A stretch of DNA of 32,000 bases from Mucisphaera calidilacus (GTDB lineage Bacteria > Planctomycetota > Phycisphaerae > Phycisphaerales > Phycisphaeraceae), in NCBI RefSeq assembly GCF_007748075.1, contig NZ_CP036280.1, positions 3,360,001 through 3,392,000 of the forward strand, given 5' to 3'. The notes beneath the pieces are model-generated. The model did no database searches. It saw nothing but the letters and a program-made list of their open reading frames with translations, and was not told the DNA's origin. The position numbers and the translations under genes were made by a program. Positions 13,813 through 32,000 of the stretch are shown piece by piece. The number at the start of each line of letters is the position of its first letter. Within the stretch, counting starts at the first letter, position 1.

Positions 13813-13822
13813 GAGCGTCGGC

Positions 13823-15842: not shown

Positions 15843-15970
15843 TCTCGTTTTTTTCTCCCGGCGGGGGTGAACGCGCATCAACGGCTTTATCCTTACAGTG
15901 ACCTGACAGAATGTGTGGTCGGAACTGTCCAGATCGCTTCCCCAACGCGCGCTCACAAGGCCCCTCAATC

Positions 15971-15999
15971 TTGACACCCACACTGAAGCGCGTTTAGCT
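15971..15999 (+). promoter_or_regulatory. candidate sigma70-like promoter for the giant gene
   Basis: TTGACA at 15971-15976, a 17-nt spacer, then TTAGCT at 15994-15999 (poor -10). This would give a ~210-nt leader. Confidence 0.18.
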
Positions 16000-16215
16000 T
16001 TCACTGTTGACCCGATCGTGTCCGTTATGGTCGTTTGAGTGATAGGGGCGTGATTTGCGTAGTGCCGCCCTCCCGCATGGGATCAACCGCCCGAGCCATC
16101 CTTCTCCTTACTCATCCTCCCTCAACGCGCCCACGATGCATAGGTCTCCGGAGACGGATGGAACGTTACACAGCCTCACAAACCGTGGCCTGACAGCAGA
16201 CTGAAAGGTGTGTCC

Positions 16216-19200
16216 GTGTTCTCACGCAAAAAGCGACGTACAGCGATGAAGAAACGGTCGAGCAAGCAGCAGCAGGCGAAGCAGCCGGCGCGCAAGAAGA
16301 GCAGGCTCCAGCTCGAAGCCCTCGAGCCTCGTGTCCTGCTCACGACGCTCTTCGGCGGCGACACCTTTGTCTACACCGACGCCAACGACAACAACGTCGA
16401 GGTGCAGATCGAGGGCGACGTCATCGTCGAACTCATCGCGGCCCAGTACAACCCCGCCATCGACGGCTTCGAGATCGGCAACCTGCCCGGCCTGCTGCTG
16501 GCCGACGGCGGCGGGCTCAACTCCCCGATCATCGGACGCACCAGCTCCTCCATCACCGTCTTCAACGACGACGGGGCCGCGGTCAACAACGTCTACGGCG
16601 CGATCAACGGCGGGCTCAACGGCACCATCGGCTCCACCTTCTGGACCGACATCAGCTCGTTCATCATCCCCGACACCATCACCGGGGTCACGGTGCCCGA
16701 GGACGACGCGCTCGAGTACCAGTCGATCGCCACCAACGCGGCGGGCGACACCTACGGCTTCCTGGTCCTGCCGCGCACCTACGTCGATGCCAACGGCGAG
16801 GAGTTCGAACAGAACGAGATCTTCGTGGTCAGGCTCGACTCCACCGAGGGGGGCACGACCCACGAGCTGATCGCCTCGTTGTCCAATCTGCAGGGGGGGC
16901 TGGGCTCCGGCGGCCCCGACGCGATCGGGCCGCTCTACAACCTCGAACTCGATGCCGATACCAACGCCGCCGACTGGGAGCCGCTGGTCCGCGCCGCCGA
17001 CTTCAACCCCGGCGACGGCCTGCTCTACTTCGTCGTCGAGGCCGAGGACCCCACCATCGGCTCGCCGATCGACAAGCTCTTCGCCTACGACGTCGAGAAC
17101 GACGTCACGTTCCCCGTCGTGGACCTCGAAGGATCACCCGCCGATCCCGCCGACCCCGCGCCGCTCTTCCCGCCCAGCGAGGAACAGTTCATCTCGTCCA
17201 TGGCCTTCGAGGTCACCGGACAGGAAGACGGCAACAACACCTACCGCATGGTCTTCTGGATCGACGTCGACGACGAGGAGATCGGCGGCCAGCTCGCCTG
17301 GGTTGACGTGACCGAGGACCCGACCGACGACCTGCGGAACACCATCGCTACGCAGGCCTCGGACAGCGCCAACTTCAGCTTCTCGGGGGCGCTCGTCGAC
17401 CCCGCCACGGTGCGCGAGGACGACCCCACGAACATCACCGGCGTCACCGGCATCGAGTTCTTCGGCGACAACACCCTCAACACCGAGCAGTTCCTCTACA
17501 TCGTCGACGGCGACAACGCGCTGCTCTACCAGGTCGACATGACCGACACCAGCCAGGTCCGGACGATGGGCGTCACGACCGACGGCGACCCCGACGAGCC
17601 GAACGGCGAGAACCTCGCCGGCATGGCCTACGACGCCAACACGCTCAACCCCTTTACCGGCACGCCCGGCGTCTTCTTCGCCACGGACACCGAGACGGAC
17701 AACCTGGTCATCCTCGACCACCGCTTCCGGCCCTCCACCGAGGCGGGCGCCGGTGCCGATCTCTTCATGATCTACGTCACCAAGGGTGACTCGGAGAACG
17801 GGCGCATCCGCATCGCGATGCGTAACGACGACATCTTCGTGACCGGCAACGAGGACCCCCGCAGCCTGACGCCTTACGGCGGCGAGGCGTACGAGTGGTC
17901 GGCGGCGCTGACCGACGGGACGCCGACCATCACGCCCCCCGGCGGCTCGGGCGGCGTGCTCATCGGTGCCGTCGATGATCCGGACAGTGACATCCCCGTC
18001 AACGTTCTCGACCCCGTTTACGTCGGCAACCTCCCCGAGGGCCGCAACGAAGTCCCCGACTTCGTCACCTACCCCTACCTCTTCGACACCCACGTCAACC
18101 TCAACCAGGGCACGCCCGAGGACGAGGGCCCCGACGTCGCGCCGGGCGTTCAGATCTCCGCGTCGCTCTGGGACTACTACTCGGGGTCGCTGCTCGGCTC
18201 GCTGATGGGCAACAACATCGACGTCGTGACCGAGGCCGCCATCAGCGCCGACGGCACGCGTCTGGCGCTCATCGACTCGGACGGCGTCGACGCGCTCGGA
18301 CGCACCGTCGACGAGAACGGCGACTTCATCGGCGACGAGCTGTTCGTCTTCAACCTCAGCACGCTGCAGCTCGAGCAGTCGACACGCATCTTCTCCAACG
18401 CCTCTGGCTCACGCGCCACGCTCAGCAACATCCAGGGCCTGGACTTCGGCGACTTCGACTCCGACGGCGTCGACGAGCTGTACGCCATCTACAACGCCGG
18501 CGGCAGCGCCAGCGTCGGCGTCCTGCAGGTCGGGTCGAACGGCCTGTTCACCGGCGAGTTCATCGCCAACGCGGCCATCAGCCGCGCGCCCGGCAGCCCG
18601 CCCGCCACCAACACCGCGCCCGCCGCCGACGACATCCGCATCACCCTGCGCGACGGCACCAACATCGACGTCGACCTCGACCAGCTGCCCGACCTGACCA
18701 CCGTCACCCTCCAGCAGCTCATCGACGTCATCAACGACGATCCCGACAACCTCGCCAACCCCGACGCGAACATCGGCGGCAAGCTCCTCGAGGTCCGTGG
18801 CAACAACACGCTGCTCTCCGACTTCAAGGTGGGCAACTTCACCCACCTCGAGTTCATCGACCGCAGCAGCCTCTTCTACATGATCGACAACGGCAGCTCC
18901 ACGCTCGCCAGCGCACTCGGCCTCGACAAGGTCGACGGCTCCGACCGCATCAACGAGAACCAGCTGCCCGACGGCACCCTCAGCGCCGGCCTCGCCTTCG
19001 AAGACATCTACGCCCGCCTGCACGACGACACCGTGCTCCACGACATCCAGGACGCCCAGGGCGAATCCCTCTTCACCGCCGCGGGCGTCAACACGCTCCT
19101 GAGCAACGGCGCGGGCGTTGTTGACTTCACCATCGAGACGCGCGACGGCAACACCTTCGAGGTCGATCTCGACGGCGCCGCCTTTGCGGCCCTCGACGAC

Positions 19201-22200
19201 ACCAGCACCCTCGACGACTTCATCACCGCACTCGGCACGGTGCAGGACACGACCGCCACAACCGACATCGCGACCGCGCTCAACTTTGCTGTCACCGGCC
19301 GGCTGCAGATCACCGATACCACCGTCTTCGACGACAACAGCATCTTCCGGGTCGTGATCGCCAACGACAGCACCGCGATGGCGCTGCTCGGCCTGACGTC
19401 GACCAACGCCGAGGACTCCACGGGATCGACAACCCGTATCGACGGCAACACCGTCGACAACATCACCGGCAACCTCGCCATCAGCCTTGATACCCCGATC
19501 GACGCCCTGCTCGACCGCAACCTCAATCCGGTCGATGTCACCGACGCCGACATCACCCTCAAGGGTCAGGACGGCGCGCCGCAGAACTACACCTTTGTCG
19601 CGGGCAACACGCTCCAGACCATCATCGACGATCTCGCGCCGGACGACTTCACGCTGAACATCGCGCCGGGCACCGCGGTAACCCTCGACGACGGCAACGC
19701 CGCCGGCACCACCATGCAGCTCAGCGACCAGGCCGGCTCGAGCTTCTTCAGCCAGCTCTTCTTCGGGACCAACGAGACCGGCACCGCGGCGATCGACGAC
19801 GACAGCGCTCCCGACGTCGCCGGCAGCAACCCGGGCATCATCCGCCCCGACGATTTCTTCTCCACCGGCCAGACGATCACGCCCGCCGCGCAGCTCAGCG
19901 CGATCTGGGCCAGCGAGATCACGGGACGCGTGCAGGCCTTCGCGATCGACCCGATCACCCAGCACGGCTTCGCCATCGACGACGGCTCGGTCGACGGCAC
20001 GTCGCTGATCGAGTTCAACCTCATCACCGGCGCCGCGATCCGTTCGGGCCTGCTCCCCGATCAGCTCGACGGCGCGGACACCACCGCACGCTTCGGCACG
20101 ATGGACTTCACCAGCGACGGCAACCTGCGCGCTCACGACGTCGCCACCGGCAGCCTGATCACCATCGACACCACGAATTTCCGCAGCGGCCTGCTCTCCG
20201 CCGCGAACATCCCCTTCACGGGCAACCAGCGGATCGCGATCGACCTCCAGGACGGCACGACCGACTTCTTCGTCGACCTCACCGGAGCGAACGACTTCCA
20301 GGGCATCATCAACCGCATCCAGTCGGCGACCAACGGCAACGTCTCGGTCACGCTCGGCGGGGCCAACTCGCTCATCCTCACCGACAACACCGCGGGCGGC
20401 GGCACCTTCGCCATCCGCAACGCCGCCGGCACCAATGCGGCGACGCTGCTGGGCATCAACACCGTGGACAACGGCGGCGGCGACCTGCGAGCCGACGTCG
20501 GCATCATCCAGGGCCAGCCCAACTTCACCGCGGTCAACATCGACCCGACCCTGAGCACCGTCTCGGGCAGCATCGGGCCGGACATCGGCGCGATCACGTT
20601 CAACAACGCCACCAGCGAGTTCCTCGGGCTGAACAACGCCCTGAGTGTCCACCGCCTGCTGAACGAGGCGGGTTCCAACGAGTCGGCGGCGCTCGTCCGC
20701 CTGGCCGGGTTCGAGGCCGGCGACGCCGAGGGCCAGGACCTCCGCGACCTGTTCATCGGCGGCACGCTCACCGGCGTCTTCTACGGCACCGGTTCGATCG
20801 AGACCCTCTACGTCGGCTGGGCGATCACCGGCGACGCCACCGGCAAGAACACCGGCCTGTTCACCAACACACTCGATCACGACTTCATCCTGCTCGGCGA
20901 CGTGCGCGACCTGATCTTCTCCTCCTCCGTGGGCGGCTCCGACGCGCTGGAGACCACCTTCAACGTCACGCCGCTGCTCACGACCGGCACCGACATCTCG
21001 GTCGGCGGGACCATCGGGCGGCTCATGGTCGCGCGTCCGGGCTCCGGCCTCTACGCCGACGTCACCGTGCTCAACCCCGTTGAGTTCAACGACGGCATCG
21101 ACTACGACGACCTGCCCTACTCCGAGATCGAGGGCAACAACGACCCGAACATCACCGACCGCATCACCCAGAAGTGGTCGCTGCCCGAGATCGAGCCCTA
21201 CGCCACGCTCTACGCCGGCGACGGCCGCTTCTCCAACGACAGCTTCGAGACGGCCGAGCCGCTCGGGGCACTGCGCAACGGCGGCATCGACGGCTCCGAG
21301 GCCCTGACGGTCCGCGGCACGCTCTATTCCGGGATCAACGACGACGACCACGTCGACTACTACAGCCTCGGCCTGCTCGCCGGGCAGACCATCACACTCG
21401 ACCTGGTGCCGGTTCTCGACATCGACTTCAACCCCTTCCGCGTCGGCATCTTCGACCCGGACGGCCGACTCGTCGCCACCAACTACGCGCACGTTGACAA
21501 GGTGCGCAAGGCCAGCGACTTCTTCGAGTTCACCGCCGACATCCCCGGCGAGTACCGCTTTGCTGTCGGCGTCTTCACGAACCCGCTCTTCGAGGACGGC
21601 GGCGACACGATCACCGCTGAGTACAACCTCGACATCTTCGGCGTCGGCAACATGGGCCTCGGCGGCGTCGTCGCGACCAACATCGCCAACAACATCATCA
21701 GCGTCGCGCAGGGCGACATCGGTGCGGTCCGCGCCGACACCAACCAGATCGCCAACGTCGGCTTCCTGGCCGGCCGCAACATCCGCTCGATCGACGCGGC
21801 CGACGACATCGGCTACCGCGAGGGCGAAGACATTGTTGATTTCAGCATCATCGTCCAGGCCGGAGGCGACGTCGGCCTGATCCGCCAGCAGTTGGGCATC
21901 GGCGAGGGCACCATGCAGATCGGCAGCCTGTTCGCGGGCGGCGACGTCCAGATGATCGAGGCCGGCGGCATCTTCATCGGCAACCTCTCGATCGACGGCG
22001 GCCTCGGCGTCCTCCGGGCCGGTGGCATCAACGGCAGCGACACGGCCGGCGGCGACTACGAGGGCCCGATCAGCAACATCCGGGTCAACGCCGACAACTC
22101 GCTCGACGGCGACGGCATCATCGACCTGATCGACGTCGCGGGCGACCTCGGATCGAGCGCCCAGGCCCCGAACAACACCGTCGTCATCGGCGGCCCCTCC

Positions 22201-25200
22201 ATCAGCACCGGGCCCGACGGCAACGTGCGCTATATGCGCGTCGGCGGCCTGATCTACCAGAACAACGACTTCGGCGCCGGCCAGTTCGGCGAGTTCCGGC
22301 TCGACGCCGGCGAGGGCGCCACGATCGTCGACGACAGCGGCGCGACCGTGCGCATCGCACCGGTCGACACCGGCGAGGTCGTGACCAACGAGGACGGCAC
22401 AACCCCCGACGAGGACGACCCCGTCGCCTTCCTGACCTACCGAACCTTCGCGATCGCCGACGGCGGCTCGGTGCTCGTCGACATCCACTCCTCCGGCGGC
22501 GTCTCGATCGTCGGCAACAGCCTCGGCACGGGGGCCCCGGTCGAGATCGGCGCCATCTACGCCAACGGCCAGGGACGCGCCGTCACGATTAACGAGGAAG
22601 AGGGCTTCGCCGAACTGCCCGAGCTCGAGGTCTTCGAGGAAGAGATCGACCTCTACGTCAGCATCGGGGGCGGCCACAACAACCCCGTCCACGTCTACTA
22701 CGTCGGCACCGATGGCGACGACAACGGCACCTCCGAGACGCGCGGCCAGTTCAGCGCCATCACCAACAACACCGGCGGCGAGATCGTCAACATCGAGGCC
22801 GCCACCATCGGCACCCTCAGCGTCGACGGCGTCGTCGGCTACGGCCTCAGCTACGCCACCGACTCGGCGGTCCGCGGCTTCCTTCTCACGCAGGACATCA
22901 TCGCGAATGAGAACATCGCCACGGTCGTCACCGCGCCGCGCACCGGTGTTGTCTCGGGCAGCATCGAGAACGTCCGCACCGACACGGCACTGGGCAACTT
23001 CTTCGTCTCCGGCATCGTCACCAGCGTCCGCGCCGACGCCGACGGCATCGACGACCCCAACCTCTTCGAGGGCGTCAACGGCGCGTTCATCGTCATCGAC
23101 GATTCCGGGCTCGAGATCCTCAACGGCAACATCTTCAGCTTCGACGTGGGCGAGGGCATCTCAAGCTCGGGCTCCGGACAGTTCGCCGAGGCAGGCATCT
23201 TCGCCATCGGACGCATCGACGGCGGCTCCCTGATCATCGGCACGGGGGCCATCGGCTCGATCACCGGCCGCGACGCGGCGATCTACGGCGACATCTACGC
23301 CGACATCTCCATCCAAAACATCAGCCTCACCGGCGATTCGGTCATCAGCGGCGGCGACATCCTCGTGACCGCCGGTTCGGCTGCGACGCTCCAGCTGCTG
23401 GACCCTCTTGTCCTTATCGACGGCGGCCTGGCCAGCGGCCTGAGCATCAACGACCCCGACCCGGACGCCGTCGCGCTTGGCGAGCGGCAGCGTGTCGGCC
23501 TGAACAACATCAACGTCAATGGCACCGGCGGCATCATCGGTGCCTTCATCGGCGGCCCGCTGATCGGCAACATCACCGTCAACAACGGCTTCGGCATCTT
23601 CAACTCCGTCGTCGCCTCCCCCGGCACCGAGGGGACCATCAACAACCTCAACATCGACGGCTACGGCCTCCGCGGCACCTACGTCACCAGCAAGGGCGAC
23701 ATCAACAACATCCTCGTCAACGGCCGCGGCGAGCAGCTCGCCGTCACCGACTTCTCCGTCCACGCACGCTCCAGCGAGTCCGTTGGCGTCGATCCCGCCA
23801 CCGGCATCGCCTTCGACCCCGCCACCGGCCTGCCCATCGACCGCTACAACGACCTGCACCGGTTCCTCGGCACCGACGCGACCACACCCGGGACCAGCGA
23901 CCTCGACAACGCGGGCGTGATCGACAGCGCGGTCATCCAGACCGCCGGCAACCTCACCGGGCAGATCCGGGCTTACCAGATCGCCTCCACCTATGACCCC
24001 TCCGACGAGCACCCCTTCAACGACCAGATCCTCTCGGACACCCTCGGCAACGCCCTGCCCGCCTACACCTACATCAACGTCGCCGGCAAGCTCAACAAGC
24101 TCATCCTGACGAGCACCGCCGCAAACCTCCAGGATCATCACAACATCAACACGGTCGCCGGCCAGTCGCTCGGTATCGACCCGTTCACCTCGCTGCCCAC
24201 GGAGCTGGCCGACGTCTCCATCGCCGGCCTCTCGATCACCGCGGGCGAGCTGGGGACCTTCACGCCGGGCGCCAACGTGGTCGGCCTCGACCTCACCGTC
24301 GACGGCCTGATCCGCAACCTCAACTTCAAGGGCGACCTGCTCTCGCTCACCGAGCTGGATCCCATCCTGACCTCCTCCATCGAGGCCAGGGGACCGGGCG
24401 GGCAGATCACCAACCTCACCGTCGCAGGCGACATGCAGGCCGATATCTTCGCCACCAACTACATCAACCGTGTGACGATCGATGGCGACCTCACGGGCAC
24501 CATCACGGTGCTCCGCGGCGACCTGCGCGGCCGCGGGCTGGGCACGCTGACCCTCGGCGGCGACCTGATCGACGGCGGGCTCGATATCGAGGGCGACGTC
24601 AACGCCATCCGCATCGACGGCAGCGTCGGCAACCCGCGCAACGCGTTCGACGAGATCGCCGACCAGCTGCTGATCACCGGCAACCTGGGCACCTTCCAGT
24701 CCGGCCAGCGCGTCGACGGCGCCAACATGGCCCTGGACCTGGTGGTCCTGGGCGACATGCGCACCCTCGACGTCTCGGGCATGTTCACCGGCGAGCTGTT
24801 CGTCGGCGGAGACCTGGGCAGCTTCCGCGTCGCGGCCGACGCCGTCACCCGCGGCACCACGATCATCGGTTCCGAGTTCGGCGACGTCGACGTCAACGTC
24901 AGCGGGACGATCGGCTCGGTCACCGTCAGCAACGGCCACGTCGGCGACGGCGAACTGGACACCAACAACGACGCGGTCCTCGAACGCGTGCGCATCAACG
25001 CCGGAGAGGGCATTCGCAATTTCTCGGTCACCAACGGCAGCGTGCTCGCCGACGCCCAGGTCGCGTCGGCGCTCGGCGACATCAACGCCATCACCGTCCG
25101 CGGCGGCGACTTCCACGGACGCGTCGACGCCAACGCCGGCACCGTCAGGAACCTGCGCCTCTCCGGGTCCGACTTCGGCGGCTCCCTCAACGCGCTCGAG

Positions 25201-28200
25201 CTGTCGAGCTTCACCATCGACGGCTCGCTGCTCACCGGCGCCACGATCGACGTGGACGAGGCGGGCCGGATCTCTATCGGGCAGGACATCCAGGCCGGCG
25301 TCGTGGTCACGCTCGGCTCCGCGCAGTCGCTCACCGTCCGCAACGACCTCAACGGCACCCTCCTCGTCGAGGGCACGAGCAGCAGGCTCAACCTCACCGT
25401 CAGCAACGACGTCACCGGGCAGGTGTTCCTCGGCGCCGACGCGAACATCCGGATCGGCGGCGACCTCGACTCCAGCACGCCCATCACCGTCGACACGACG
25501 CTCGCCGAGCTGGGCATCGTCGGCTCGCCCGGCTCCTCCATCGAGGTCCAGCTCCGCGACGGGACCGCCCCGCGCGTCGTCGACCTCACCGGTGTGTCCA
25601 CCATCGCGGAGCTCAAGGCCGCCATCGAGGCCGAGGTGCCCTTCGTCATCGTCAGCATCGACGACGACCAGGAGGCCATCCGGCTCACCGACGAGTCGCC
25701 CGACAACGGCGCGACCTTCTCCGTCACCGACCTCGGCAACGGCACGATCGCCCGCACGCTCGGCTTCAACACCGCCGACGGCGGGGCCGGCGACCGCGAC
25801 AACAACGCCAACGGCACCATCGAGGGCGCGCCCATCGGCTTCGGGCTTGTCCAGGGCACCTCGCTCGAAGACCTCGGCGCCGACATCGCTCCCGACAGCG
25901 ACCTGCGCTTCACGCTCAGCGACGGCTCGAGCCTCTCCGTCTCGCTCGCCGGTGCCGAGTCCCTCCAGGACATCATCGACGCCATCAACGCCGTCAGCAT
26001 CAACCTCACCGCGGGTCTCGACCCCACCGGCACGGCGCTCCAGGTCACAGACGCGACCGGCAACGGCCTGCAGATCCAGAACGGCGTCGACTCGCGCATG
26101 GCCGAGCGGCTCGGCCTGCTCGCCACCGACGGCGCGCTCGGCGACAACGACGGCGCGCTCGACGGCACCATCACCGGCTCCCGCCTCAGCGGGGCGCTGC
26201 TCTACATCGACGGCGACGCGAGCAACCTCAGCATCGACAGCGTCAACGGCGGCGTCTTCGTGACCGGCGAGCTCAGGAGCCTCAACGCCAACAGCATCGA
26301 CGCCTCCGTCATCGTCACGGGACAGGACCTCGGCAGGATCAACGTCCGCAACGACATCAGCAACACCCTTGTCCAGGCCGGACTCCTGCCCACGGCCAGC
26401 ATCGAGCAGGTCGCGCTGCAGATCCGACAGGACCTGCCCGGGCAGGCGGTCGTCCTCTACAACCCGGTCGACGGCACCGACGCCAGCCGCGGCGAGATCG
26501 GCAGCCTCAGCGCCGTCAACCTCACCGAGTCCGTCATCGCGGCGGGCGGCGAGTTCGGCACCCTCCGCCTCAGGGGCGGCATGACCGACAGCTCTGTCTC
26601 CTCCGGCATCGTGTTCGGCGTCACCGCCGTCAACGACGCCGCTCGTGACGCCACCACCCTCGGCACCGCCGCCGAACGCAACGACGCTCGCGGCACCGCG
26701 GGCGACCGCGTCCTCACCCAGGGCGACTTCGGCAGCGCCACCATCTCCGGCAGCGTCGCCACCAGCGCCATCACTGCCGGCATCGACCCGGGCGACGACG
26801 GCATCTTCGACGCCAACGCCACCAGCCTCGTCGGCGCACCCGCCGCCAACGACAGCAATATCTACAGCTCCACCACCGGCGGCCAGAGCGCGATCGGCAC
26901 CCTCAACGCCGGAGCCTGGGACGGCGCATCCCTCGGCCTCTCCGACGGGCCCATCAGCAGGACCAACCTCCCCGGCGGGCAGCAGGGCATCTTCGACTAC
27001 ACCATCGAAGCCATCGACGGCGCGGCCGGCAGCCCCGTCGCGGCCCTGCCCGTTACCGTCATCGCACCCAACGCCGACGGCACCATTACCGTCCCCGGCG
27101 CGACCGGCTCGCTCATCGTCCGGCCCGCGGGCGGCGCGACCGTCGTGGTCTACGACGACAACGCCGCCGACGACACCATCGACGCCATTGTCATCACCGG
27201 CGGCGCCCGCAACGCCAGCCTGACCATCACCGGCGACGGCGCGAACGACCCCGCCGACTGGGCCATCGAACGCATCCTCGCCGACGACGACGCCTCGCTC
27301 GCCACCCTCCGGTTCGACGGGCTGCTCACCGGCGACGACGCCACGGGCACCGTCGACCTCTGGCTCGAGTCAGGCCTCAGCACGCTCGTGCTCGGCGGGT
27401 TCGCCGAGACCACCGCCAACGGGCTCACCGGCCGTATCGCCGGCGACATCCGCACCGCCGACCTCGGCACCGTCGGCGGCGGCAACCTGACCATCGGCGG
27501 CGAGGTGAGCAGGCTCACCCTCGGCGGCAGCGAGAACTCGCCGGTCCTCGGCAACGCGGCCGAGTCCGCCTCGCCGGGCATCACCGAGATCACCTTCACC
27601 AACACCGGCCTGTTCTATTCCTTCGACGGTAACACTGGCCTCTTCCAGTCCAGCGACACCACCGACGTCGCCACCTTCGCCATCGCCGACAACGGACCGA
27701 GCACCATCGCCGCCGACCTCGGCATCGCGGGCACCGACGGCGCCGCGGGCGACACCGACAACACCGACAACAACGCGATCCTCGGCACGCAGCTCTCCGC
27801 CGACCCCATCACCCTCGACACCACCCTCGCCGACCTGGGCATCGACCCCACCGGCGGCAACGTCGACTTCGCCTTCCGCGACGGCAACACGGCCACCATC
27901 GACCTCTCCGCGGCCACCACGCTCCGCGACGTCGCCAGCATCCTCACCGCCGATTCCGAGGGACGCCTCTACACCACCCTCACCGACGACGGCGAGCTGC
28001 GCATCGTCGAGACCAGCACCACCACACGCGTCAGCATCGACGACACCCTCGCGTCGGGCGTCGAGATCAACCCCGGCGAAACACTCACGATCAGCCTCCG
28101 CGACGGCGGCGACGACCTCACCATCAATCTCTCCAACGTCTACACGCTGCAGGACCTCATCGACGCGGTCAACACCCAGTCCTTCCGCTTCTTCACCGAC

Positions 28201-31200
28201 CTCGGCGGAACGCCCTACCGCGACGCCGAGGGCAACCGCGTCCTCGACACCACCACCGGGCCGCTCGTCACCGCACGCATCAACGACGAGGGCAACGGCC
28301 TGGTCTTCGAAGACCAGACCGCGGGCGGCAACACCTTCCAGATCAACGTCGACGATCCTGACTCCGACCTCATCACCATCTTCGGACTCGACGCCACCGA
28401 CGGCGGCGTCGGCGAGGGCGCCTCCGACGGCAACCTCATGACCGGCAGCATCCTCCTGACCGAGGCGATCAAGACCGACCTCCGCGACGTGCTCGGCAGC
28501 GCCGCCGGCAACACCTTCGACCCGACCAACACCCTGCGCCTGAGCATCGACCTCCGCGACGGCTCCAACGGCGTCATCGTCGACCTCACCGGGCTCAGCA
28601 CCTTCGAGGACGTCGCTCAGGCCATCTACGACCAGACCGACCAACGCGTCACCCTCGTCACCGCGGGCGGCGCACGCATGGTCGCGATCGACAACTCCAC
28701 CGACAACGGCGGGACCTTCGCCATCGCCGATGCCGTCGGCGACCTCGCCGAGAAGCTCGGCATCGCCGCCGTCGACGACGGGGCCGACCCCAACGACCAG
28801 GACGGCGCCCCGAACGGACGCATCCTCGGACGCGGACTCGTCACCCTTGAGACGCAGCTCAGCGTCTTGGGCGTCGCGGTCAACGGCGACGAGGTCCTCA
28901 GCTTCGACCTCGCCGGGGCCGACCCCGCACGCACCGGCTTCACCGTCAACCTCGTCAACTTCACCGTCAACACCGTCGGCGACCTCATCAACGCCATCGA
29001 GACCGTCGCCGGCAATTTCCCCGTGGTCGGCAACGGCCTCACGGTCGAGATCGTCAACACCGACTTCGACGGCAGCTACCTCGTTGTTTCCGACAACGGC
29101 GGCTCCTCGGCACTCCGCATCACCGACGTCGAAGGCACCATCGCACAAGACCTCGGCATCAGCGGCTTCGACGGCGGCCCGACCGACGACGACGGCGCAG
29201 CCGACGGCACCTTCTCGTCCATCAACCTCTTCATCCGCACCGCGACCCTCGCCGACTCCAGCGTCAGCTTCGCCGGCGACCAGGTCCTCGACCTCGCCCT
29301 CGACGGCGGCGTCGCAACCGCCACCCTCTCCGACGTCGACACGCTCGCGGGCGTCATCAACGCCTTCGAGGCCGACGACAACGTCCGCGCCGGCTTCGAC
29401 GGGCTCGGACGACTCGTCCTTATCGACACCACAGGCGACGGCGGCTTCACCATCACCCAGACCAGCGGCGACGCGGCCGTCGCGCTCGGCCTGCTCCCGA
29501 CCGATGGTCTCGCGGGTGTCGCCGACGGCGTCATCAACACCCTGCCCATCACCCCCGTCGTCACCGAGAACACCTCGTTGCTCGGCGGCCTGGGCATCAA
29601 CTTCCAGGACGAGCTGGCCATCACCGTCCAGCTACGCGACTCGAGCGTCTTCAGCATCGACCTCTCCGAGGCACGCACCGCCGAGCAGGTCCTCGACGCT
29701 ATCAGCCGCGCAACCTCCGGTCTCGTCTCCGCCGAGTTCGGCGCCGGCGGACGCATCATCCTCACCGACAGCTCGATCGGCGCCGCCAGCTTCTCCATCA
29801 GCGACACCTCGGGCGTCATCGCACAGCGCCTGGGTATCGCAGCCACCGACGGCCTGGTTAATGACGTCGACGGCGTAGTCGACGGCGTGATCCTCGGGCG
29901 GTCCATTATCCAGACCTCCACACGCCTGAGCATGCTCGGCATCGACCCCGCCAACGGCATCGTCGACGTCGACTACCGCGACGGCACCAGCAGCACCATC
30001 GACCTCTCCGGAGCACGGTCCGTCGCCGACGTCGCCGCCACCCTGGCCGCCGATTCCTCCGGCAGGCTCTCCGTCACCATCACCACCGACGGCAGGCTGC
30101 TCGTCACCGACGGCTCCAGCGGAGGCGGAACCTTCGCCATCGCCGACAACAATATCTTCAGCACCATCGCCCGGGACCTCGGCATCGACCAGACCGACGA
30201 CGGCAGCGACAACGACGGCGTCGCCAACAAGCAGATCCTTGGCAACCGCCTGATCGCCTCGCAGGCGACCCTGCCCGCGGCACTCGGCGCCGGCCAGACC
30301 CTCCGGCTCAACCTCCAGAGCGGGGCCACCGTCGACGTCGACCTGTCCAACGCCAACACCTTTGGCGAGATCATCCACAAGATCAACATCGACGCCGCCG
30401 GCCTCGTCTCAGCACGGCTCGCTTCCGACGCGCGGCTCGTGATCACCGACCTCACCGCCGGCGGCAACGTCTTCTCCATCGCCGATCAGGCCGGCACGCC
30501 CGCCACGACCCTCGGCATCGCCGCGACCGACGGCGGCGCAGGCGACCAGGACGGCGAACTCGCCGCCGACGGAACCATCAAGGGCACCAGCCTCTACGGC
30601 GACAACGCGGCGGCCGTCAACCTCTTCGACCTCGGTATCAGCTTCGTGGCCGGTGACGCCTTCACCATCACCACCGCCGACAACGTCACCACCGTCATCA
30701 ACGTCGCGGCCGCCACCACCCTCGACGACCTCATCACCGCCATCGAGACCGCCCCCAACGTCTCGGTCACCGTCGGACTCGACGGCGGGCTCAACGTCGA
30801 AGACACCTCCGGCGGTGCGACCGTACCCTTCCGCATCTACACCGACGCCGGACAGAGCAGCAACGCCCTCGAACAAATCGGCCTCGAAGCCTCCGACGGC
30901 GGCGCGGGCGATCTCGACGGCTCCTCCGACAACACCATCACCGGAACCAGCATCGTCACCGCCGCCACACGCATGTCGCTCCTGGGCATCGCCGCCACCG
31001 GCGCCGAAGAACTCGTCCTCACCCTCCACGACGGCTCCACCCGTGTCGTCGACCTCACCGACACCACGACCATCGGCGAGGTCATCGAGGCGATCCAGAC
31101 CCAGACCGCCAACGACGTCACCGTCGTCATCGACCAGGCCGGGCGACTCCTGCTCACCGACACCACCGCCGACGCCGGCGGCGCCTTCACCATCAACAAC

Positions 31201-32000
31201 CTCGCCGGCACGCCCGCGACCGACCTGGGCATCCTCACGACGCAGGCCACCCGGCTCGCCGACGCCCTCGGCATCGCCGGCACCGACGGCACCGACGCGG
31301 ACGGCGCCGCCAACGGCACGCTCCTCGGTCCCGCCATCCTCACCGACGCGTTCACACTCGACGCCCTCGGCATCAACCCCGCCAACGGCGCGATCGACGT
31401 CACCCTTCAGGACGGCACCACCGTCACCATTGACCTCGCCGCCGCGACCTCCATCGAGGACGTCAGCGACGCCATCGCCGCCGCGACCTCAGGCAACCTC
31501 ACGCTCCTCGTCACCACCGAGGGACGCCTCCAACTCACCGACGCCACCGCGGGCGGCTCCACACTCACCATCGCCGACAACGGCAGCTCGACCATCGCCG
31601 CCGACCTGGGCATCGCCGCCACCGACGGCGGGCCGGGCGACGACGACGCCATCGCCAACGGCGTGATTGTGGGCGACAACATCCTCGCCGACGCACTCAC
31701 CCTCCAGGCCCTCGGCCTCGAGGCCAACGGCGCGGGCGTCAACGTCACCCTGCAGGACGCCACCGCCGCCAACGTCGATCTCAGTGCCGCCGCGTCCGTC
31801 GACGACGTCGCTACCGCTCTCGCGGCCGGCACCGCCGGCAACCTCAGCCTCGTCATCACGCCCGATGGCCGACTCCAGCTCACCGACGCCACCGCAGGCG
31901 GGTCCACCCTCCGTGTCTCCGACGACGCGGTCCTCGGCAACAACCTCGTCACCAAGCTCGTCGCCGAGGACGCACTCTCCACCGTCGACGGCACCACCAT
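16216..32000 (+). CDS. giant secreted/cell-surface repeat protein, 5' part only (at least 5,261 codons in window; continues past the right edge)
   Basis: Frame +1 has its last stop at TAG 16141-16143. I translated every line from there to 32000 and met no stop. The ORF track omits it because it has no stop. Start is GTG 16216 (GAAAGG at 16203-16208, 7 nt upstream), with ATG 16246 as an alternative. Third codon positions are strongly G/C. The N-terminus is VFSRKKRRTAMKKRSSKQQQAKQPARKKSRLQLEALEPRVLL. Confidence 0.85.
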   Translation, partial: MFSRKKRRTAMKKRSSKQQQAKQPARKKSRLQLEALEPRVLLTTLFGGDTFVYTDANDNNVEVQIEGDVIVELIAAQYNPAIDGFEIGNLPGLLLADGGGLNSPIIGRTSSSITVFNDDGAAVNNVYGAINGGLNGTIGSTFWTDISSFIIPDTITGVTVPEDDALEYQSIATNAAGDTYGFLVLPRTYVDANGEEFEQNEIFVVRLDSTEGGTTHELIASLSNLQGGLGSGGPDAIGPLYNLELDADTNAADWEPLVRAADFNPGDGLLYFVVEAEDPTIGSPIDKLFAYDVENDVTFPVVDLEGSPADPADPAPLFPPSEEQFISSMAFEVTGQEDGNNTYRMVFWIDVDDEEIGGQLAWVDVTEDPTDDLRNTIATQASDSANFSFSGALVDPATVREDDPTNITGVTGIEFFGDNTLNTEQFLYIVDGDNALLYQVDMTDTSQVRTMGVTTDGDPDEPNGENLAGMAYDANTLNPFTGTPGVFFATDTETDNLVILDHRFRPSTEAGAGADLFMIYVTKGDSENGRIRIAMRNDDIFVTGNEDPRSLTPYGGEAYEWSAALTDGTPTITPPGGSGGVLIGAVDDPDSDIPVNVLDPVYVGNLPEGRNEVPDFVTYPYLFDTHVNLNQGTPEDEGPDVAPGVQISASLWDYYSGSLLGSLMGNNIDVVTEAAISADGTRLALIDSDGVDALGRTVDENGDFIGDELFVFNLSTLQLEQSTRIFSNASGSRATLSNIQGLDFGDFDSDGVDELYAIYNAGGSASVGVLQVGSNGLFTGEFIANAAISRAPGSPPATNTAPAADDIRITLRDGTNIDVDLDQLPDLTTVTLQQLIDVINDDPDNLANPDANIGGKLLEVRGNNTLLSDFKVGNFTHLEFIDRSSLFYMIDNGSSTLASALGLDKVDGSDRINENQLPDGTLSAGLAFEDIYARLHDDTVLHDIQDAQGESLFTAAGVNTLLSNGAGVVDFTIETRDGNTFEVDLDGAAFAALDDTSTLDDFITALGTVQDTTATTDIATALNFAVTGRLQITDTTVFDDNSIFRVVIANDSTAMALLGLTSTNAEDSTGSTTRIDGNTVDNITGNLAISLDTPIDALLDRNLNPVDVTDADITLKGQDGAPQNYTFVAGNTLQTIIDDLAPDDFTLNIAPGTAVTLDDGNAAGTTMQLSDQAGSSFFSQLFFGTNETGTAAIDDDSAPDVAGSNPGIIRPDDFFSTGQTITPAAQLSAIWASEITGRVQAFAIDPITQHGFAIDDGSVDGTSLIEFNLITGAAIRSGLLPDQLDGADTTARFGTMDFTSDGNLRAHDVATGSLITIDTTNFRSGLLSAANIPFTGNQRIAIDLQDGTTDFFVDLTGANDFQGIINRIQSATNGNVSVTLGGANSLILTDNTAGGGTFAIRNAAGTNAATLLGINTVDNGGGDLRADVGIIQGQPNFTAVNIDPTLSTVSGSIGPDIGAITFNNATSEFLGLNNALSVHRLLNEAGSNESAALVRLAGFEAGDAEGQDLRDLFIGGTLTGVFYGTGSIETLYVGWAITGDATGKNTGLFTNTLDHDFILLGDVRDLIFSSSVGGSDALETTFNVTPLLTTGTDISVGGTIGRLMVARPGSGLYADVTVLNPVEFNDGIDYDDLPYSEIEGNNDPNITDRITQKWSLPEIEPYATLYAGDGRFSNDSFETAEPLGALRNGGIDGSEALTVRGTLYSGINDDDHVDYYSLGLLAGQTITLDLVPVLDIDFNPFRVGIFDPDGRLVATNYAHVDKVRKASDFFEFTADIPGEYRFAVGVFTNPLFEDGGDTITAEYNLDIFGVGNMGLGGVVATNIANNIISVAQGDIGAVRADTNQIANVGFLAGRNIRSIDAADDIGYREGEDIVDFSIIVQAGGDVGLIRQQLGIGEGTMQIGSLFAGGDVQMIEAGGIFIGNLSIDGGLGVLRAGGINGSDTAGGDYEGPISNIRVNADNSLDGDGIIDLIDVAGDLGSSAQAPNNTVVIGGPSISTGPDGNVRYMRVGGLIYQNNDFGAGQFGEFRLDAGEGATIVDDSGATVRIAPVDTGEVVTNEDGTTPDEDDPVAFLTYRTFAIADGGSVLVDIHSSGGVSIVGNSLGTGAPVEIGAIYANGQGRAVTINEEEGFAELPELEVFEEEIDLYVSIGGGHNNPVHVYYVGTDGDDNGTSETRGQFSAITNNTGGEIVNIEAATIGTLSVDGVVGYGLSYATDSAVRGFLLTQDIIANENIATVVTAPRTGVVSGSIENVRTDTALGNFFVSGIVTSVRADADGIDDPNLFEGVNGAFIVIDDSGLEILNGNIFSFDVGEGISSSGSGQFAEAGIFAIGRIDGGSLIIGTGAIGSITGRDAAIYGDIYADISIQNISLTGDSVISGGDILVTAGSAATLQLLDPLVLIDGGLASGLSINDPDPDAVALGERQRVGLNNINVNGTGGIIGAFIGGPLIGNITVNNGFGIFNSVVASPGTEGTINNLNIDGYGLRGTYVTSKGDINNILVNGRGEQLAVTDFSVHARSSESVGVDPATGIAFDPATGLPIDRYNDLHRFLGTDATTPGTSDLDNAGVIDSAVIQTAGNLTGQIRAYQIASTYDPSDEHPFNDQILSDTLGNALPAYTYINVAGKLNKLILTSTAANLQDHHNINTVAGQSLGIDPFTSLPTELADVSIAGLSITAGELGTFTPGANVVGLDLTVDGLIRNLNFKGDLLSLTELDPILTSSIEARGPGGQITNLTVAGDMQADIFATNYINRVTIDGDLTGTITVLRGDLRGRGLGTLTLGGDLIDGGLDIEGDVNAIRIDGSVGNPRNAFDEIADQLLITGNLGTFQSGQRVDGANMALDLVVLGDMRTLDVSGMFTGELFVGGDLGSFRVAADAVTRGTTIIGSEFGDVDVNVSGTIGSVTVSNGHVGDGELDTNNDAVLERVRINAGEGIRNFSVTNGSVLADAQVASALGDINAITVRGGDFHGRVDANAGTVRNLRLSGSDFGGSLNALELSSFTIDGSLLTGATIDVDEAGRISIGQDIQAGVVVTLGSAQSLTVRNDLNGTLLVEGTSSRLNLTVSNDVTGQVFLGADANIRIGGDLDSSTPITVDTTLAELGIVGSPGSSIEVQLRDGTAPRVVDLTGVSTIAELKAAIEAEVPFVIVSIDDDQEAIRLTDESPDNGATFSVTDLGNGTIARTLGFNTADGGAGDRDNNANGTIEGAPIGFGLVQGTSLEDLGADIAPDSDLRFTLSDGSSLSVSLAGAESLQDIIDAINAVSINLTAGLDPTGTALQVTDATGNGLQIQNGVDSRMAERLGLLATDGALGDNDGALDGTITGSRLSGALLYIDGDASNLSIDSVNGGVFVTGELRSLNANSIDASVIVTGQDLGRINVRNDISNTLVQAGLLPTASIEQVALQIRQDLPGQAVVLYNPVDGTDASRGEIGSLSAVNLTESVIAAGGEFGTLRLRGGMTDSSVSSGIVFGVTAVNDAARDATTLGTAAERNDARGTAGDRVLTQGDFGSATISGSVATSAITAGIDPGDDGIFDANATSLVGAPAANDSNIYSSTTGGQSAIGTLNAGAWDGASLGLSDGPISRTNLPGGQQGIFDYTIEAIDGAAGSPVAALPVTVIAPNADGTITVPGATGSLIVRPAGGATVVVYDDNAADDTIDAIVITGGARNASLTITGDGANDPADWAIERILADDDASLATLRFDGLLTGDDATGTVDLWLESGLSTLVLGGFAETTANGLTGRIAGDIRTADLGTVGGGNLTIGGEVSRLTLGGSENSPVLGNAAESASPGITEITFTNTGLFYSFDGNTGLFQSSDTTDVATFAIADNGPSTIAADLGIAGTDGAAGDTDNTDNNAILGTQLSADPITLDTTLADLGIDPTGGNVDFAFRDGNTATIDLSAATTLRDVASILTADSEGRLYTTLTDDGELRIVETSTTTRVSIDDTLASGVEINPGETLTISLRDGGDDLTINLSNVYTLQDLIDAVNTQSFRFFTDLGGTPYRDAEGNRVLDTTTGPLVTARINDEGNGLVFEDQTAGGNTFQINVDDPDSDLITIFGLDATDGGVGEGASDGNLMTGSILLTEAIKTDLRDVLGSAAGNTFDPTNTLRLSIDLRDGSNGVIVDLTGLSTFEDVAQAIYDQTDQRVTLVTAGGARMVAIDNSTDNGGTFAIADAVGDLAEKLGIAAVDDGADPNDQDGAPNGRILGRGLVTLETQLSVLGVAVNGDEVLSFDLAGADPARTGFTVNLVNFTVNTVGDLINAIETVAGNFPVVGNGLTVEIVNTDFDGSYLVVSDNGGSSALRITDVEGTIAQDLGISGFDGGPTDDDGAADGTFSSINLFIRTATLADSSVSFAGDQVLDLALDGGVATATLSDVDTLAGVINAFEADDNVRAGFDGLGRLVLIDTTGDGGFTITQTSGDAAVALGLLPTDGLAGVADGVINTLPITPVVTENTSLLGGLGINFQDELAITVQLRDSSVFSIDLSEARTAEQVLDAISRATSGLVSAEFGAGGRIILTDSSIGAASFSISDTSGVIAQRLGIAATDGLVNDVDGVVDGVILGRSIIQTSTRLSMLGIDPANGIVDVDYRDGTSSTIDLSGARSVADVAATLAADSSGRLSVTITTDGRLLVTDGSSGGGTFAIADNNIFSTIARDLGIDQTDDGSDNDGVANKQILGNRLIASQATLPAALGAGQTLRLNLQSGATVDVDLSNANTFGEIIHKINIDAAGLVSARLASDARLVITDLTAGGNVFSIADQAGTPATTLGIAATDGGAGDQDGELAADGTIKGTSLYGDNAAAVNLFDLGISFVAGDAFTITTADNVTTVINVAAATTLDDLITAIETAPNVSVTVGLDGGLNVEDTSGGATVPFRIYTDAGQSSNALEQIGLEASDGGAGDLDGSSDNTITGTSIVTAATRMSLLGIAATGAEELVLTLHDGSTRVVDLTDTTTIGEVIEAIQTQTANDVTVVIDQAGRLLLTDTTADAGGAFTINNLAGTPATDLGILTTQATRLADALGIAGTDGTDADGAANGTLLGPAILTDAFTLDALGINPANGAIDVTLQDGTTVTIDLAAATSIEDVSDAIAAATSGNLTLLVTTEGRLQLTDATAGGSTLTIADNGSSTIAADLGIAATDGGPGDDDAIANGVIVGDNILADALTLQALGLEANGAGVNVTLQDATAANVDLSAAASVDDVATALAAGTAGNLSLVITPDGRLQLTDATAGGSTLRVSDDAVLGNNLVTKLVAEDALSTVDGTT
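16306..16341 (+). other. N-terminal LQLEALEPRVLL motif (LExLExRxLL type) after a Lys/Arg-rich stretch
   Basis: Read directly from the translation. From memory, this motif recurs near the N-terminus of many large planctomycete extracellular proteins. Confidence 0.6.
18634..20484 (+). repeat. four dispersed copies of the ~115-aa 'RDG...TD...LG' module (protein-level repeat)
   Basis: Copies are anchored at ITLRDGT (~18640), ETRDGN (~19135), LKGQDG (~19558) and DLQDGT (~20245). Each has a T-L-x-[DQ]-[LFI]-I-x-x-[IL] helix, a later L-x-[IL]-TD strand and a terminal LLG[LI]. A non-repeat segment separates copies 3 and 4. Confidence 0.6.
21230..21575 (+). other. PPC-type (bacterial pre-peptidase C-terminal-like) jelly-roll domain inside the giant protein
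   Basis: NDSFETAEPLGAL...LTVRGTLYSGINDDDHVDYYSLGLLAGQTITLDLV...FRVGIFDPDGRLVATNY...FEFTADIPGEYRFAVG follows the PPC pattern (N....A..L...G.L....D.D.Y.F....G..I...L......L.L.D..G..vA.s........f.a...G.Y...V). Confidence 0.55.
25540..26178 (+). repeat. two further copies of the ~115-aa module
   Basis: First copy: IEVQLRDGTAPRVVDLTGVSTIAELKAAIEA...IRLTDESPDNGATFSVTDLGNGTIARTLGFNTADGGAGDRDNNANGTIEG. Second copy: LRFTLSDGSSLSVSLAGAESLQDIIDAINA...LQVTDATGNGLQIQN...MAERLGLLATDGALGDNDGALDGTITG. Confidence 0.65.
27580..32000 (+). repeat. tandem array of about 12-13 copies of the ~115-aa module (period ~340-380 nt; protein-level, DNA copies divergent), truncated by the window edge
   Basis: Anchors [LY][RQH]DG[TSGN] lie at ~27871, 28093, 28549, 29629, 29971, 31021 and 31402. 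Degenerate equivalents lie at ~28880, 29290, 30310, 30667 and 31744. Consensus by eye: L..LGI...g..v.v.LrDGt...iDLs.A.T..Dv..aI.....g.L...it.dGRL.LTD.t.GG..f.I.D.....iA.dLGIaAtDGG.GD.D..a.NG.I.G. Confidence 0.75.

Follow-up and report, generated by a model that had tools for sequence, protein, structure and literature searches.

A giant, cysteine-free protein encoded in Mucisphaera calidilacus, with repeated modules related to the head modules of flagellar cap proteins

A giant gene fills half of the window

The 3′ half of a 32,000-nucleotide stretch of the Mucisphaera calidilacus genome (contig NZ_CP036280.1, forward-strand positions 3,360,001 to 3,392,000; hereafter ‘the window’, numbered from its first letter) is occupied by a single gene in frame +1, as had been proposed in a first-pass annotation made from the sequence letters and a list of open reading frames (ORFs). 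Recomputation of the translation found no in-frame stop codon: following a TAG at 16141–16143, the frame runs through 5,285 sense codons to position 31998, an outcome with a probability of ~1.4e-51 given the base composition of the window, and 5,261 codons are counted from a GTG at 16216, in agreement with the earlier count. The gene was also predicted to run past the window, and it does so. An exhaustive profile search identified its product as WP_236254481.1 (labelled P0001 here), a 7,141-residue ‘hypothetical protein’ of M. calidilacus, the first 5,251 residues of which are 100% identical to the window translation from an ATG at 16246. The whole gene comprises 7,141 codons from that ATG, or ~7,151 from the GTG (~21.4 kb); it continues for 1,890 codons outside the window and ends ~5.7 kb beyond it. 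The window covers three-quarters of the gene, counted from its 5′ end, and the gene is a genuine giant of ~7,150 codons (Table 1).

The G+C content (GC) at the first, second and third codon positions of frame +1 is 0.63, 0.47 and 0.94, respectively, with the same values in each 1.5-kb chunk, which bears out the G/C-rich third positions (GC3) noted in the first-pass annotation. Across positions 16144–32000 the supplied ORF track lists only antisense and frame +2 entries, the longest antisense entry encoding 1,427 residues. The antisense ORFs (18412–23160, 23164–27369 and 27373–29631) and the frame-shifted plus-strand ORFs carry a GC of 0.95 in their first codon position, and are therefore shadow frames of a gene with high GC3, as had been suspected. 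Frame statistics had been suggested as a means of choosing between the strands; codon-position GC favours frame +1 and speaks against the antisense ORFs. The frame is indeed unlisted in the track, yet this reflects no biological or annotation anomaly: according to its documentation, the ORF tool does not report frames extending past either end of its source sequence, and the giant frame is missing because the gene runs off the window end.

The possibility that the frame is not a gene, and is instead a high-GC stop-free stretch with one of the antisense ORFs as the real gene, might be raised by the GC content of the window (67%) and by the length of its opposite-strand shadow ORFs (up to 1,427 residues). 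Such a reading is confronted with a probability of ~1e-51 for 5,285 codons lacking a stop, a GC3 of 0.94 in frame +1 only, full-length orthologues with ~51% amino acid identity and the same start and end, and confident predicted folds of its modules (below). The frame statistics and the orthologues already refute it, and we regard it as excluded. The GC content of the window is 67.3%, with both halves above the genome mean, as compared to 63.9% reported for the genome (PMC8882080).

The composition of the product is unusual in the ways the first-pass annotation had described. Residue counts for the in-window portion gave 12.7% Gly, 10.5% Asp, 10.3% Ala and 10.0% Thr, with only 31 lysines (0.59%), ten of which are found within the first 52 residues. 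There is no cysteine in the 5,285-residue translation (P ~6e-15, given a content of 0.62% in nine neighbouring genes), nor in the full 7,141-residue protein (P ~6e-20). The whole protein is strongly acidic (1,010 Asp and Glu versus 281 Lys and Arg).

Orthologues are present in three Phycisphaeraceae metagenome assemblies: P0002 (6,793 residues), P0151 (6,769 residues) and P0152 (6,803 residues). P0002 aligns end-to-end with P0001 at ~51% identity and is likewise devoid of cysteine. The metagenome-assembled genomes (MAGs) represent near-identical strains, and the different called lengths of their proteins (6,769, 6,793 and 6,803 residues) arise in part from differences in the called starts.

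The orthologue also bears on the position of the start codon. The RefSeq product (beginning MKKRSS) starts at ATG 16246–16248, ten codons downstream of GTG 16216. P0002 starts at the homologous GTG, with an in-frame TAA immediately upstream (its product begins MFSPKK, and the window translation VFSRKK), and a GAAAGG motif lies 9–14 nt upstream of the GTG in both genomes. The start context shared by the orthologue GTG and by GTG 16216 reads CAGCAGACnGAAAGGTGT...GTGTTCTCAC, and also GAAAGGTGT...GTGTTCTCAC. Because of the orthologue start, the adjacent upstream TAA and the preserved context, GTG 16216, from which the first-pass annotation had counted, is more likely to be the true start than the RefSeq ATG.

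The species description reports one giant gene of more than 15 kb in this genome, Pan265_03220, encoding 13,493 residues (PMC8882080). A protein of that length cannot be the product of the 21.4-kb gene described here, which that publication leaves uncounted. In UniRef, WP_236254481.1 is represented solely by a UniParc-based entry and is the sole member of its 90% cluster; judging from that entry, the original GenBank annotation may lack the giant gene as an intact coding sequence.

Table 1. Positions of features within the window
Feature	Position	Strand	Basis
Giant gene, in-window part	16216..32000	+	Open frame, GC3 0.94, identity to WP_236254481.1
Most likely start codon, GTG	16216..16218	+	Orthologue start context
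Leader: basic stretch, then LEPR-XLL-type motif LQLEALEPRVLL (16306-16341)	16216..16341	+	NF012209, orthologue conservation
N-terminal region, ~760 residues, no assignable domain	16342..18633	+	Pfam and PDB searches
Modules 1-4 (18634-19047, 19126-19518, 19552-19851, 20233-20571)	18634..20571	+	Iterative HMM, alignment, FliD-only HMM
PPC-like segment (DDDHVDYYSL...GEYRFAV), unconfirmed	21211..21648	+	Inspection
Central Gly/Asp/Ile/Val-rich region, partly ~18-21-residue solenoid-like units (g.i..l.v.gdl.g.i.a)	21649..25539	+	Unit HMM
Modules 5-6 (25540-25893, 25903-26247)	25540..26247	+	Iterative HMM, alignment, FliD-only HMM
Second solenoid-like/unassigned region	26248..27543	+	Unit HMM
Modules 7-19, near-continuous array, the last cut by the window end	27544..31995	+	Iterative HMM, alignment, FliD-only HMM
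Conserved upstream region, putative promoter and ~200-250-nt 5′ leader	15960..16215	+	Block alignment with L001 9745-10000
Divergent, syntenically conserved HlyD-fusion pair	11617..15751	-	Pfam and NCBIfam matches
GAF + HlyD-adaptor protein	13823-15751	-	Pfam/NCBIfam
PqqD-like + M50 metalloprotease + HlyD-adaptor fusion	11617-13812	-	Pfam/NCBIfam

A repeated module related to those of flagellar cap proteins

The first-pass annotation had remarked on a ‘domain grammar’ in the frame +1 product, which fragment self-comparison and an iterative hidden Markov model (HMM) resolved into a module of ~113 residues; the protein contains 23 copies, 19 of them inside the window. In the translation that begins at 16144, four copies occupy residues 831–1476, two occupy residues 3133–3368, and thirteen extend from residue 3801 to the window end; the four further copies beyond the window are partly degenerate. 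A first self-BLAST of the protein had returned the identity match only. The modules are 22–51% identical to a reference copy and are joined by short, variable linkers, and Tandem Repeats Finder detected only trivial repeats in the DNA; given this low identity and the lack of tandem repeats at the DNA level, the array appears to be old and diverged and not recently amplified. The orthologue P0002 contains 19 modules to the 23 of P0001, and has deletions of 94, 127 and 88 residues, each approximately the size of a module.

A profile built from the 19 in-window copies matched 1,611 proteins at E≤1e-3 in an exhaustive search of 1.84 billion representatives. After two giants, the matches are mostly proteins of 900–1,500 residues with 4–9 modules. 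Nine were sampled: Flagellin_IN is present in every one, seven combine it with both FliD_N and FliD_C of Pfam, and one has FliD_C without FliD_N. By local HMMs, 126 of the 148 top-scoring non-giant matches carry a terminal domain of FliD, and several of the others begin like FlgL. Single-domain E values of the giant-derived profile against FliD proteins reach 2e-21. The reverse comparison gave the same picture, in that an HMM built from the modules of 111 bona fide FliD proteins recognized 22 modules along the giant chain (E=3.8e-183 for the full sequence, down to 1e-20 for single domains), and profile–profile alignment of the two modules with hhalign yielded a probability of 99.2% (E=5e-20) over 101 columns. 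The closest named FliD proteins belong to Phycisphaeraceae or Planctomycetota. By these profile comparisons, the giant module and the ‘IN-motif’ modules repeated in the heads of long planctomycetal FliD caps are homologous.

Pfam Flagellin_IN (PF07196) gave no match at its gathering threshold of 22.7 bits on large pieces of the giant protein. On single copies, six of the 19 matched at E≤1 (best E=1e-3; 16.2 bits for copy 1), all of them sub-threshold and within the first ~50 residues. A weak match to the NCBIfam FlgL model PRK06663 falls within modules 5–6, and the module profile found nothing significant among PDB sequences.

AlphaFold2 predicted the structure of a single module with a predicted local distance difference test score (pLDDT) of 92.4 and a predicted template modelling score (pTM) of 0.81. 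The modelled topology is beta-beta-alpha-beta-beta-beta, after which come a short helix, an Asp/Gly-rich loop that is well defined, and one last strand. Its core is predicted to be beta-grasp-like, in agreement with sub-threshold Pfam matches to ubiquitin-like and RA domains. The loop, with the consensus TDGGxGDxDGxxNGxI, occurs 13 times in the protein as compared to 1.3 times in shuffled sequences. A two-module model gave a pLDDT of 85.6 and a pTM of 0.73.

Given the distribution of the module, we considered whether the protein might belong to the flagellum. Identity as a flagellar cap itself was rejected, since the terminal FliD domains are missing: neither FliD_N nor FliD_C is detected in the 7,141-residue protein by Pfam, nor with significance by the local HMMs. 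A broader version of this idea, in which the protein is a giant relative of FliD or of hook-associated proteins that is exported by the flagellar type III apparatus and decorates the filament tip, would fit with the overwhelming occurrence of the module in FliD and its presence in FlgL-like proteins, with the motility of the organism (PMC8882080), and with the absence of cysteine from flagellar substrates as well (median of 0 among the FliD matches). We nevertheless consider it very improbable. The helical ends that define axial flagellar proteins are lacking, the N-terminus carries instead a LEPR-XLL-type leader common to non-flagellar giants, the window and the orthologous loci (L001–L003) contain no flagellar genes, and no axial protein resembles a 7,141-residue chain that includes solenoid and protease domains.

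Regions flanking and separating the modules

The protein begins with a leader comprising a basic stretch (13 Lys or Arg in 30 residues) and a LEPR-XLL-type motif; at 69% identity to the same region of the orthologue, it is the most conserved segment of the chain. The NCBIfam model for this motif (NF012209, cut-off 17 bits) scored 17.2 bits on the isolated 60-residue N-terminus, across positions 1–12 only of a 24-position profile, and 12.8 bits within a 2,000-residue piece of the protein; the N-terminus of the orthologue scored 17.9 bits. The Pfam family Planc_extracel (PF07595) scored 11.3 bits (E=0.31) on the N-terminus, below its gathering score of 25.5.

The IN-type module is also found in large non-flagellar proteins with a LEPR-XLL leader (P0120, 38.2 bits; P0149, 30.1 bits). 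This group also includes P0054, a 3,979-residue ‘tandem-95 repeat protein’ with cadherin-like domains, and P0084, which has true RTX (repeats-in-toxin) repeats.

In the ~760 residues that follow the leader, the sole Pfam trace is a 15.9-bit match to FG-GAP_3, and a PDB sequence search returned no significant relative; the region looks propeller-like by eye only. A word-indexed search with the N-terminal 1,300 residues returned nothing and missed the protein's own entry too, and so is no proof of orphan status. Queries with P0001 in that search returned neither P0001 nor P0002, both of which belong to the collection searched, making its negatives unreliable for a giant protein of low complexity. 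The N-terminal region and a propeller-like C-terminal region were tried as duplicates of one another, an idea that was rejected because their similarity is not significant.

Two segments resembling pre-peptidase C-terminal (PPC) domains were noted by eye in the protein, neither of them confirmed. The one in the window is the best-conserved internal segment relative to the orthologue (63%), and has no Pfam match and no significant PDB sequence match. The two segments were rejected as mutual duplicates, again for lack of significant similarity. Between the module arrays, an HMM of a short repeat unit counted 39 solenoid-like units in the whole protein, as compared to 1–5 in shuffled sequences. 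These are spaced 18–21 residues apart and cluster in the two Gly/Asp/Ile/Val-rich regions listed in Table 1 and past the window end, a pattern suggesting that those regions may be beta-solenoid-like.

The last ~270 residues of the protein (approximately residues 6870–7141 of P0001, outside the window) contain the sequence HELGHILGHNH followed by LMSAGP. Six smaller relatives (P0163–P0168) share 32–39% identity; some have precomputed Reprolysin-like or Matrixin Pfam matches, and one is named ‘M66 family metalloprotease’. In eight aligned relatives HExGHxLGxxH is invariant, and LM[SA], a candidate Met-turn, lies ~36 residues past the motif in seven. A profile of this alignment matched 139 PDB entries, all of them metzincins and all over the active-site helix only. 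No Pfam peptidase family reached its threshold on the domain, the best being Reprolysin_5 (19.8 bits versus 27) and Matrixin (18.1 versus 24). The motif HExxHxxGxxH and the matched structures point to a domain of metzincin type. As most of the relatives lie on contigs of ~1–5 kb, they could be pieces of longer proteins. Conservation of the very end of the chain, (E)FPVGD.IDTVDLLLRWL, extends from the giant protein to small relatives that consist of a PPC and a metzincin domain, and this tail may be a signal for sorting or secretion.

A conserved protease motif at the end of so long a chain raises the possibility of a polyprotein precursor, which the metzincin or a neighbouring protease would cut into small secreted matrix units such that no single fibre is formed. 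Other giant proteins of bacteria have been suggested to process themselves (bioRxiv 10.1101/2023.11.21.568195), and the organism makes an abundant extracellular matrix (PMC8882080). However, no recurring cleavage-site motif was found between modules, the modules themselves are diverged and their linkers short and variable, and the fairly defined inter-module geometry of the two-module model (pTM 0.73) suggests a continuous rod. A polyprotein thus seems improbable.

Upstream region and gene neighbourhood

The ~250 nt upstream of the start codon are conserved in blocks between M. calidilacus and the orthologous MAG locus L001, though the proteins are only ~51% identical. The blocks comprise CTTGACAC...GCGTTTAGCTT...TTGACC, GCCATCCTTCTCC (paired with GGAGAnGGATnG), CTCnGGAGAnGGAT and CAGCAGACnGAAAGGTGT. 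This region may represent a promoter followed by a long 5′ leader; no match to a consensus sigma-70 promoter is found within it. A structured, riboswitch-like leader was considered and rejected, with no Rfam match, a fold whose stability does not exceed that of shuffled sequences (z=+1.05), and only two independent sequences to compare. Inside the gene, ARAGORN called an antisense tRNA-Ile (GAT) of 92 nt at 18520–18611 (minus strand), but Rfam, applied with its gathering score, recovers no tRNA there, and in coding sequence this rich in GC the call is almost certainly spurious.

Upstream of the giant gene, the plus strand encodes pyruvate kinase, purE, purK and an RND pump, and the minus strand encodes a GNAT protein, an S13 DD-carboxypeptidase and the divergent pair of HlyD-domain fusions. 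The M50 protease part of the second fusion is closest to a maturation protease of daptides, a class of ribosomally synthesized and post-translationally modified peptides (RiPPs), at 159 bits and thus under the cut-off of 300 bits; the pair may constitute a system for peptide maturation and export. The placement of the HlyD fusions beside the giant gene is kept in all three orthologous loci (L001, L002 and L003), and downstream of the orthologues lie genes for DsbD, a CN-hydrolase and an agmatine-deiminase-like protein. As this synteny also spans unrelated housekeeping genes, we have not taken it as evidence of a functional link between the HlyD pair and the giant gene.

The adjacent HlyD genes do invite a model in which the protein is a type I secretion substrate similar to the RTX adhesins, leaving the cell C-terminus first through an ATP-binding cassette (ABC) transporter, HlyD and TolC, perhaps with use of those very genes, and held at the surface by an N-terminal retention plug. 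A cysteine-free, very acidic chain with Asp/Gly-rich loops and a C-terminal tail conserved among its relatives would suit such a route, and so would the preserved arrangement of the two HlyD-domain genes. Two further proteins provide precedents of a kind: the module-bearing P0084, with its RTX repeats, and a LEPR-XLL giant of Vibrio that combines RTX and serralysin domains (PMC10868602). The giant protein itself, however, has no RTX nonapeptide (0 regular-expression matches to GGxGxDxUx in 7,141 residues) and no HemolysinCabind match, for which reason its identity as an RTX protein was rejected. No ABC transporter or TolC gene is present in the 16 kb of the window upstream of the gene, or within 10 kb on either side, downstream included, in the orthologue. 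The adjacent HlyD domains are fused to GAF and to a PqqD-like/M50 protease closest to those that mature daptide RiPPs, a sign that they belong to a separate peptide system, and the synteny, as noted, reaches unrelated housekeeping genes. On balance a type I-like route is unlikely; we rank it as the main rival on the question of export, with the flagellar and polyprotein models less likely still.

Proposed function and export

We propose that the gene encodes a giant secreted, cysteine-free and very acidic fibre of the adhesin or matrix type, built from FliD-type modules and bearing a distal metzincin domain, and assign this reading a probability of about 0.6; its function and mode of export are inferred. 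The protein would be exported in an unfolded state, which would explain the total absence of cysteine, as in flagellar and type I substrates. Once outside the cell it would fold into a long acidic rod or fibre, probably stabilized by Ca2+, in which the FliD-type modules and the solenoids might serve as spacers or extenders and as an adhesive surface, and the metzincin domain as a distal head with a proteolytic or processing role. Some pathogens have FliD head domains with affinity for mucins or glycosaminoglycans, a property that would suit an adhesive role. Such a fibre could form part of the organism's dense extracellular matrix and polar fibres.

Two sets of published observations match an extracellular rod of this type. 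M. calidilacus is described as motile, its cells lying within a dense extracellular matrix and having a ‘polar matrix or fibre’ (PMC8882080), and giant proteins of the Planctomycetota–Verrucomicrobiota–Chlamydiota (PVC) group have been linked in general to adhesion (bioRxiv 10.1101/2023.11.21.568195).

Several points weigh against this proposal. The case for the giant protein is built on its sequence, and its tie to the matrix of the organism is circumstantial. No Pfam family reaches threshold on any part of the protein, and no canonical signal peptide is evident at the N-terminus, where the LEPR-XLL match is marginal and covers half of the profile. FliD structures occupy the top ranks of a Foldseek search with the modelled module, none of them at a significant level. 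Ca2+ binding is suggested by the resemblance of the module loop to Ca2+-binding loops, the corresponding match to calmodulin being non-significant (E=0.23). The beta-solenoid and PPC assignments derive from repeat statistics and inspection only, and that of the metzincin from ~30 active-site residues that lie outside the window.

A bolder version of the proposal is that the FliD head module was co-opted in the Phycisphaerae to form a class of cysteine-free, LEPR-XLL-led and metzincin-tipped giant fibres, exported by a route that is neither classical Sec, nor RTX-type type I, nor flagellar type III secretion and for which the N-terminal motif and the C-terminal tail would be the marks. The M. 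calidilacus protein, with its 23 modules, would then be the largest known member and would make the slime-like colloid and the polar fibres to which Mucisphaera owes its name. We regard this as speculative, and doubtful in its full form.

Planctomycetota commonly carry giant genes, and RefSeq already contains this one, so it does not represent a new kind of system. What is new is the resolved architecture of a protein with no Pfam match, the FliD IN module as its main building block in a non-flagellar setting, and a better-supported start codon. For annotation, the locus illustrates that, when end-truncated frames are dropped from an ORF list, the main feature of a window can vanish from view and only its shadow frames stay visible, and that an architecture can still be resolved for a protein of 7,000 residues in which no domain exceeds its Pfam threshold. 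It also adds a second giant gene to a genome for which the published description counts one (PMC8882080). For the biology of these bacteria, the comparisons show that a head module of the flagellar cap also serves as an extender unit in giant non-flagellar proteins of Planctomycetota. If the protein is indeed a component of the matrix or the polar fibre, it would offer a handle on how these little-understood bacteria build slime and attach, and would help to explain the role of the widespread and unstudied LEPR-XLL leader.

Comparison with known systems

The long planctomycetal FliD proteins are the closest relatives of the repeated part of the protein. They share with it a module of ~100 residues with the grammar I.ItdrdG...vDL..a.T..DVi.aIN...v.a...g.L.ltD...G...i....g..A.dLGI, an absence of cysteine, and, for the nearest named examples, the same bacterial family. 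They differ in size and in what surrounds the modules: a FliD of ~900–1,500 residues has 4–8 modules between its FliD_N and FliD_C helical domains, whereas the giant protein has 23, together with a LEPR-XLL-type leader, solenoid regions and a metzincin-type end, and its modules contain the additional acidic Asp/Gly loop described above.

The type I-secreted RTX adhesins (of the LapA, MpIBP and SiiE type) are also thousands of residues long, cysteine-free and very acidic, with long arrays of beta-rich extender modules of ~100 residues and Asp-rich loops, and are presumed to form extended fibres at the cell surface. The giant protein resembles them in its lack of cysteine, its strong acidity and its repetitive extender region of 23 modules. 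Their extender is Ig-like, in contrast to the FliD-type extender found here; the giant protein lacks RTX nonapeptides and an adjacent ABC transporter; and where RTX adhesins have a retention module it has an N-terminal LEPR-XLL motif.

The C-terminal domain resembles metzincins (clan MA(M), comprising the matrixins M10, the reprolysins M12B, fragilysin and M66) in its HExxHxxGxxH motif, followed by the conserved LM[SA] as a candidate Met-turn, and differs from them in falling under all Pfam thresholds and in being fused to the end of a 7,000-residue chain. Among the PVC-group giants of Omnitrophota and Planctomycetota, proteins of 5,000 to more than 10,000 residues are common, with few recognizable domains and sometimes with peptidase domains (bioRxiv 10.1101/2023.11.21.568195). 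The Omnitrophota giants are much larger and lie beside genes for secretion of types II and IV, whereas the M. calidilacus gene has another neighbourhood and another repeat module.

The LEPR-XLL proteins (NF012209, ‘LEPR-8K’) are likewise very large, and begin with a basic stretch followed by an N-terminal ...LE.LEPR.LL... motif. Neither of two papers mentioning this motif examines its function. In the Vibrio LEPR-XLL giant, of ~8,000 residues, the chain terminates in domains of the protease (serralysin) and RTX types (PMC10868602). The M. calidilacus protein differs from this group in matching the first half of the profile, and that marginally, and in having no RTX repeats. Three members of the group (P0120, P0149 and P0054) carry the IN-type module as it does, and the giant gene is the largest example found here of an existing, uncharacterized architecture.

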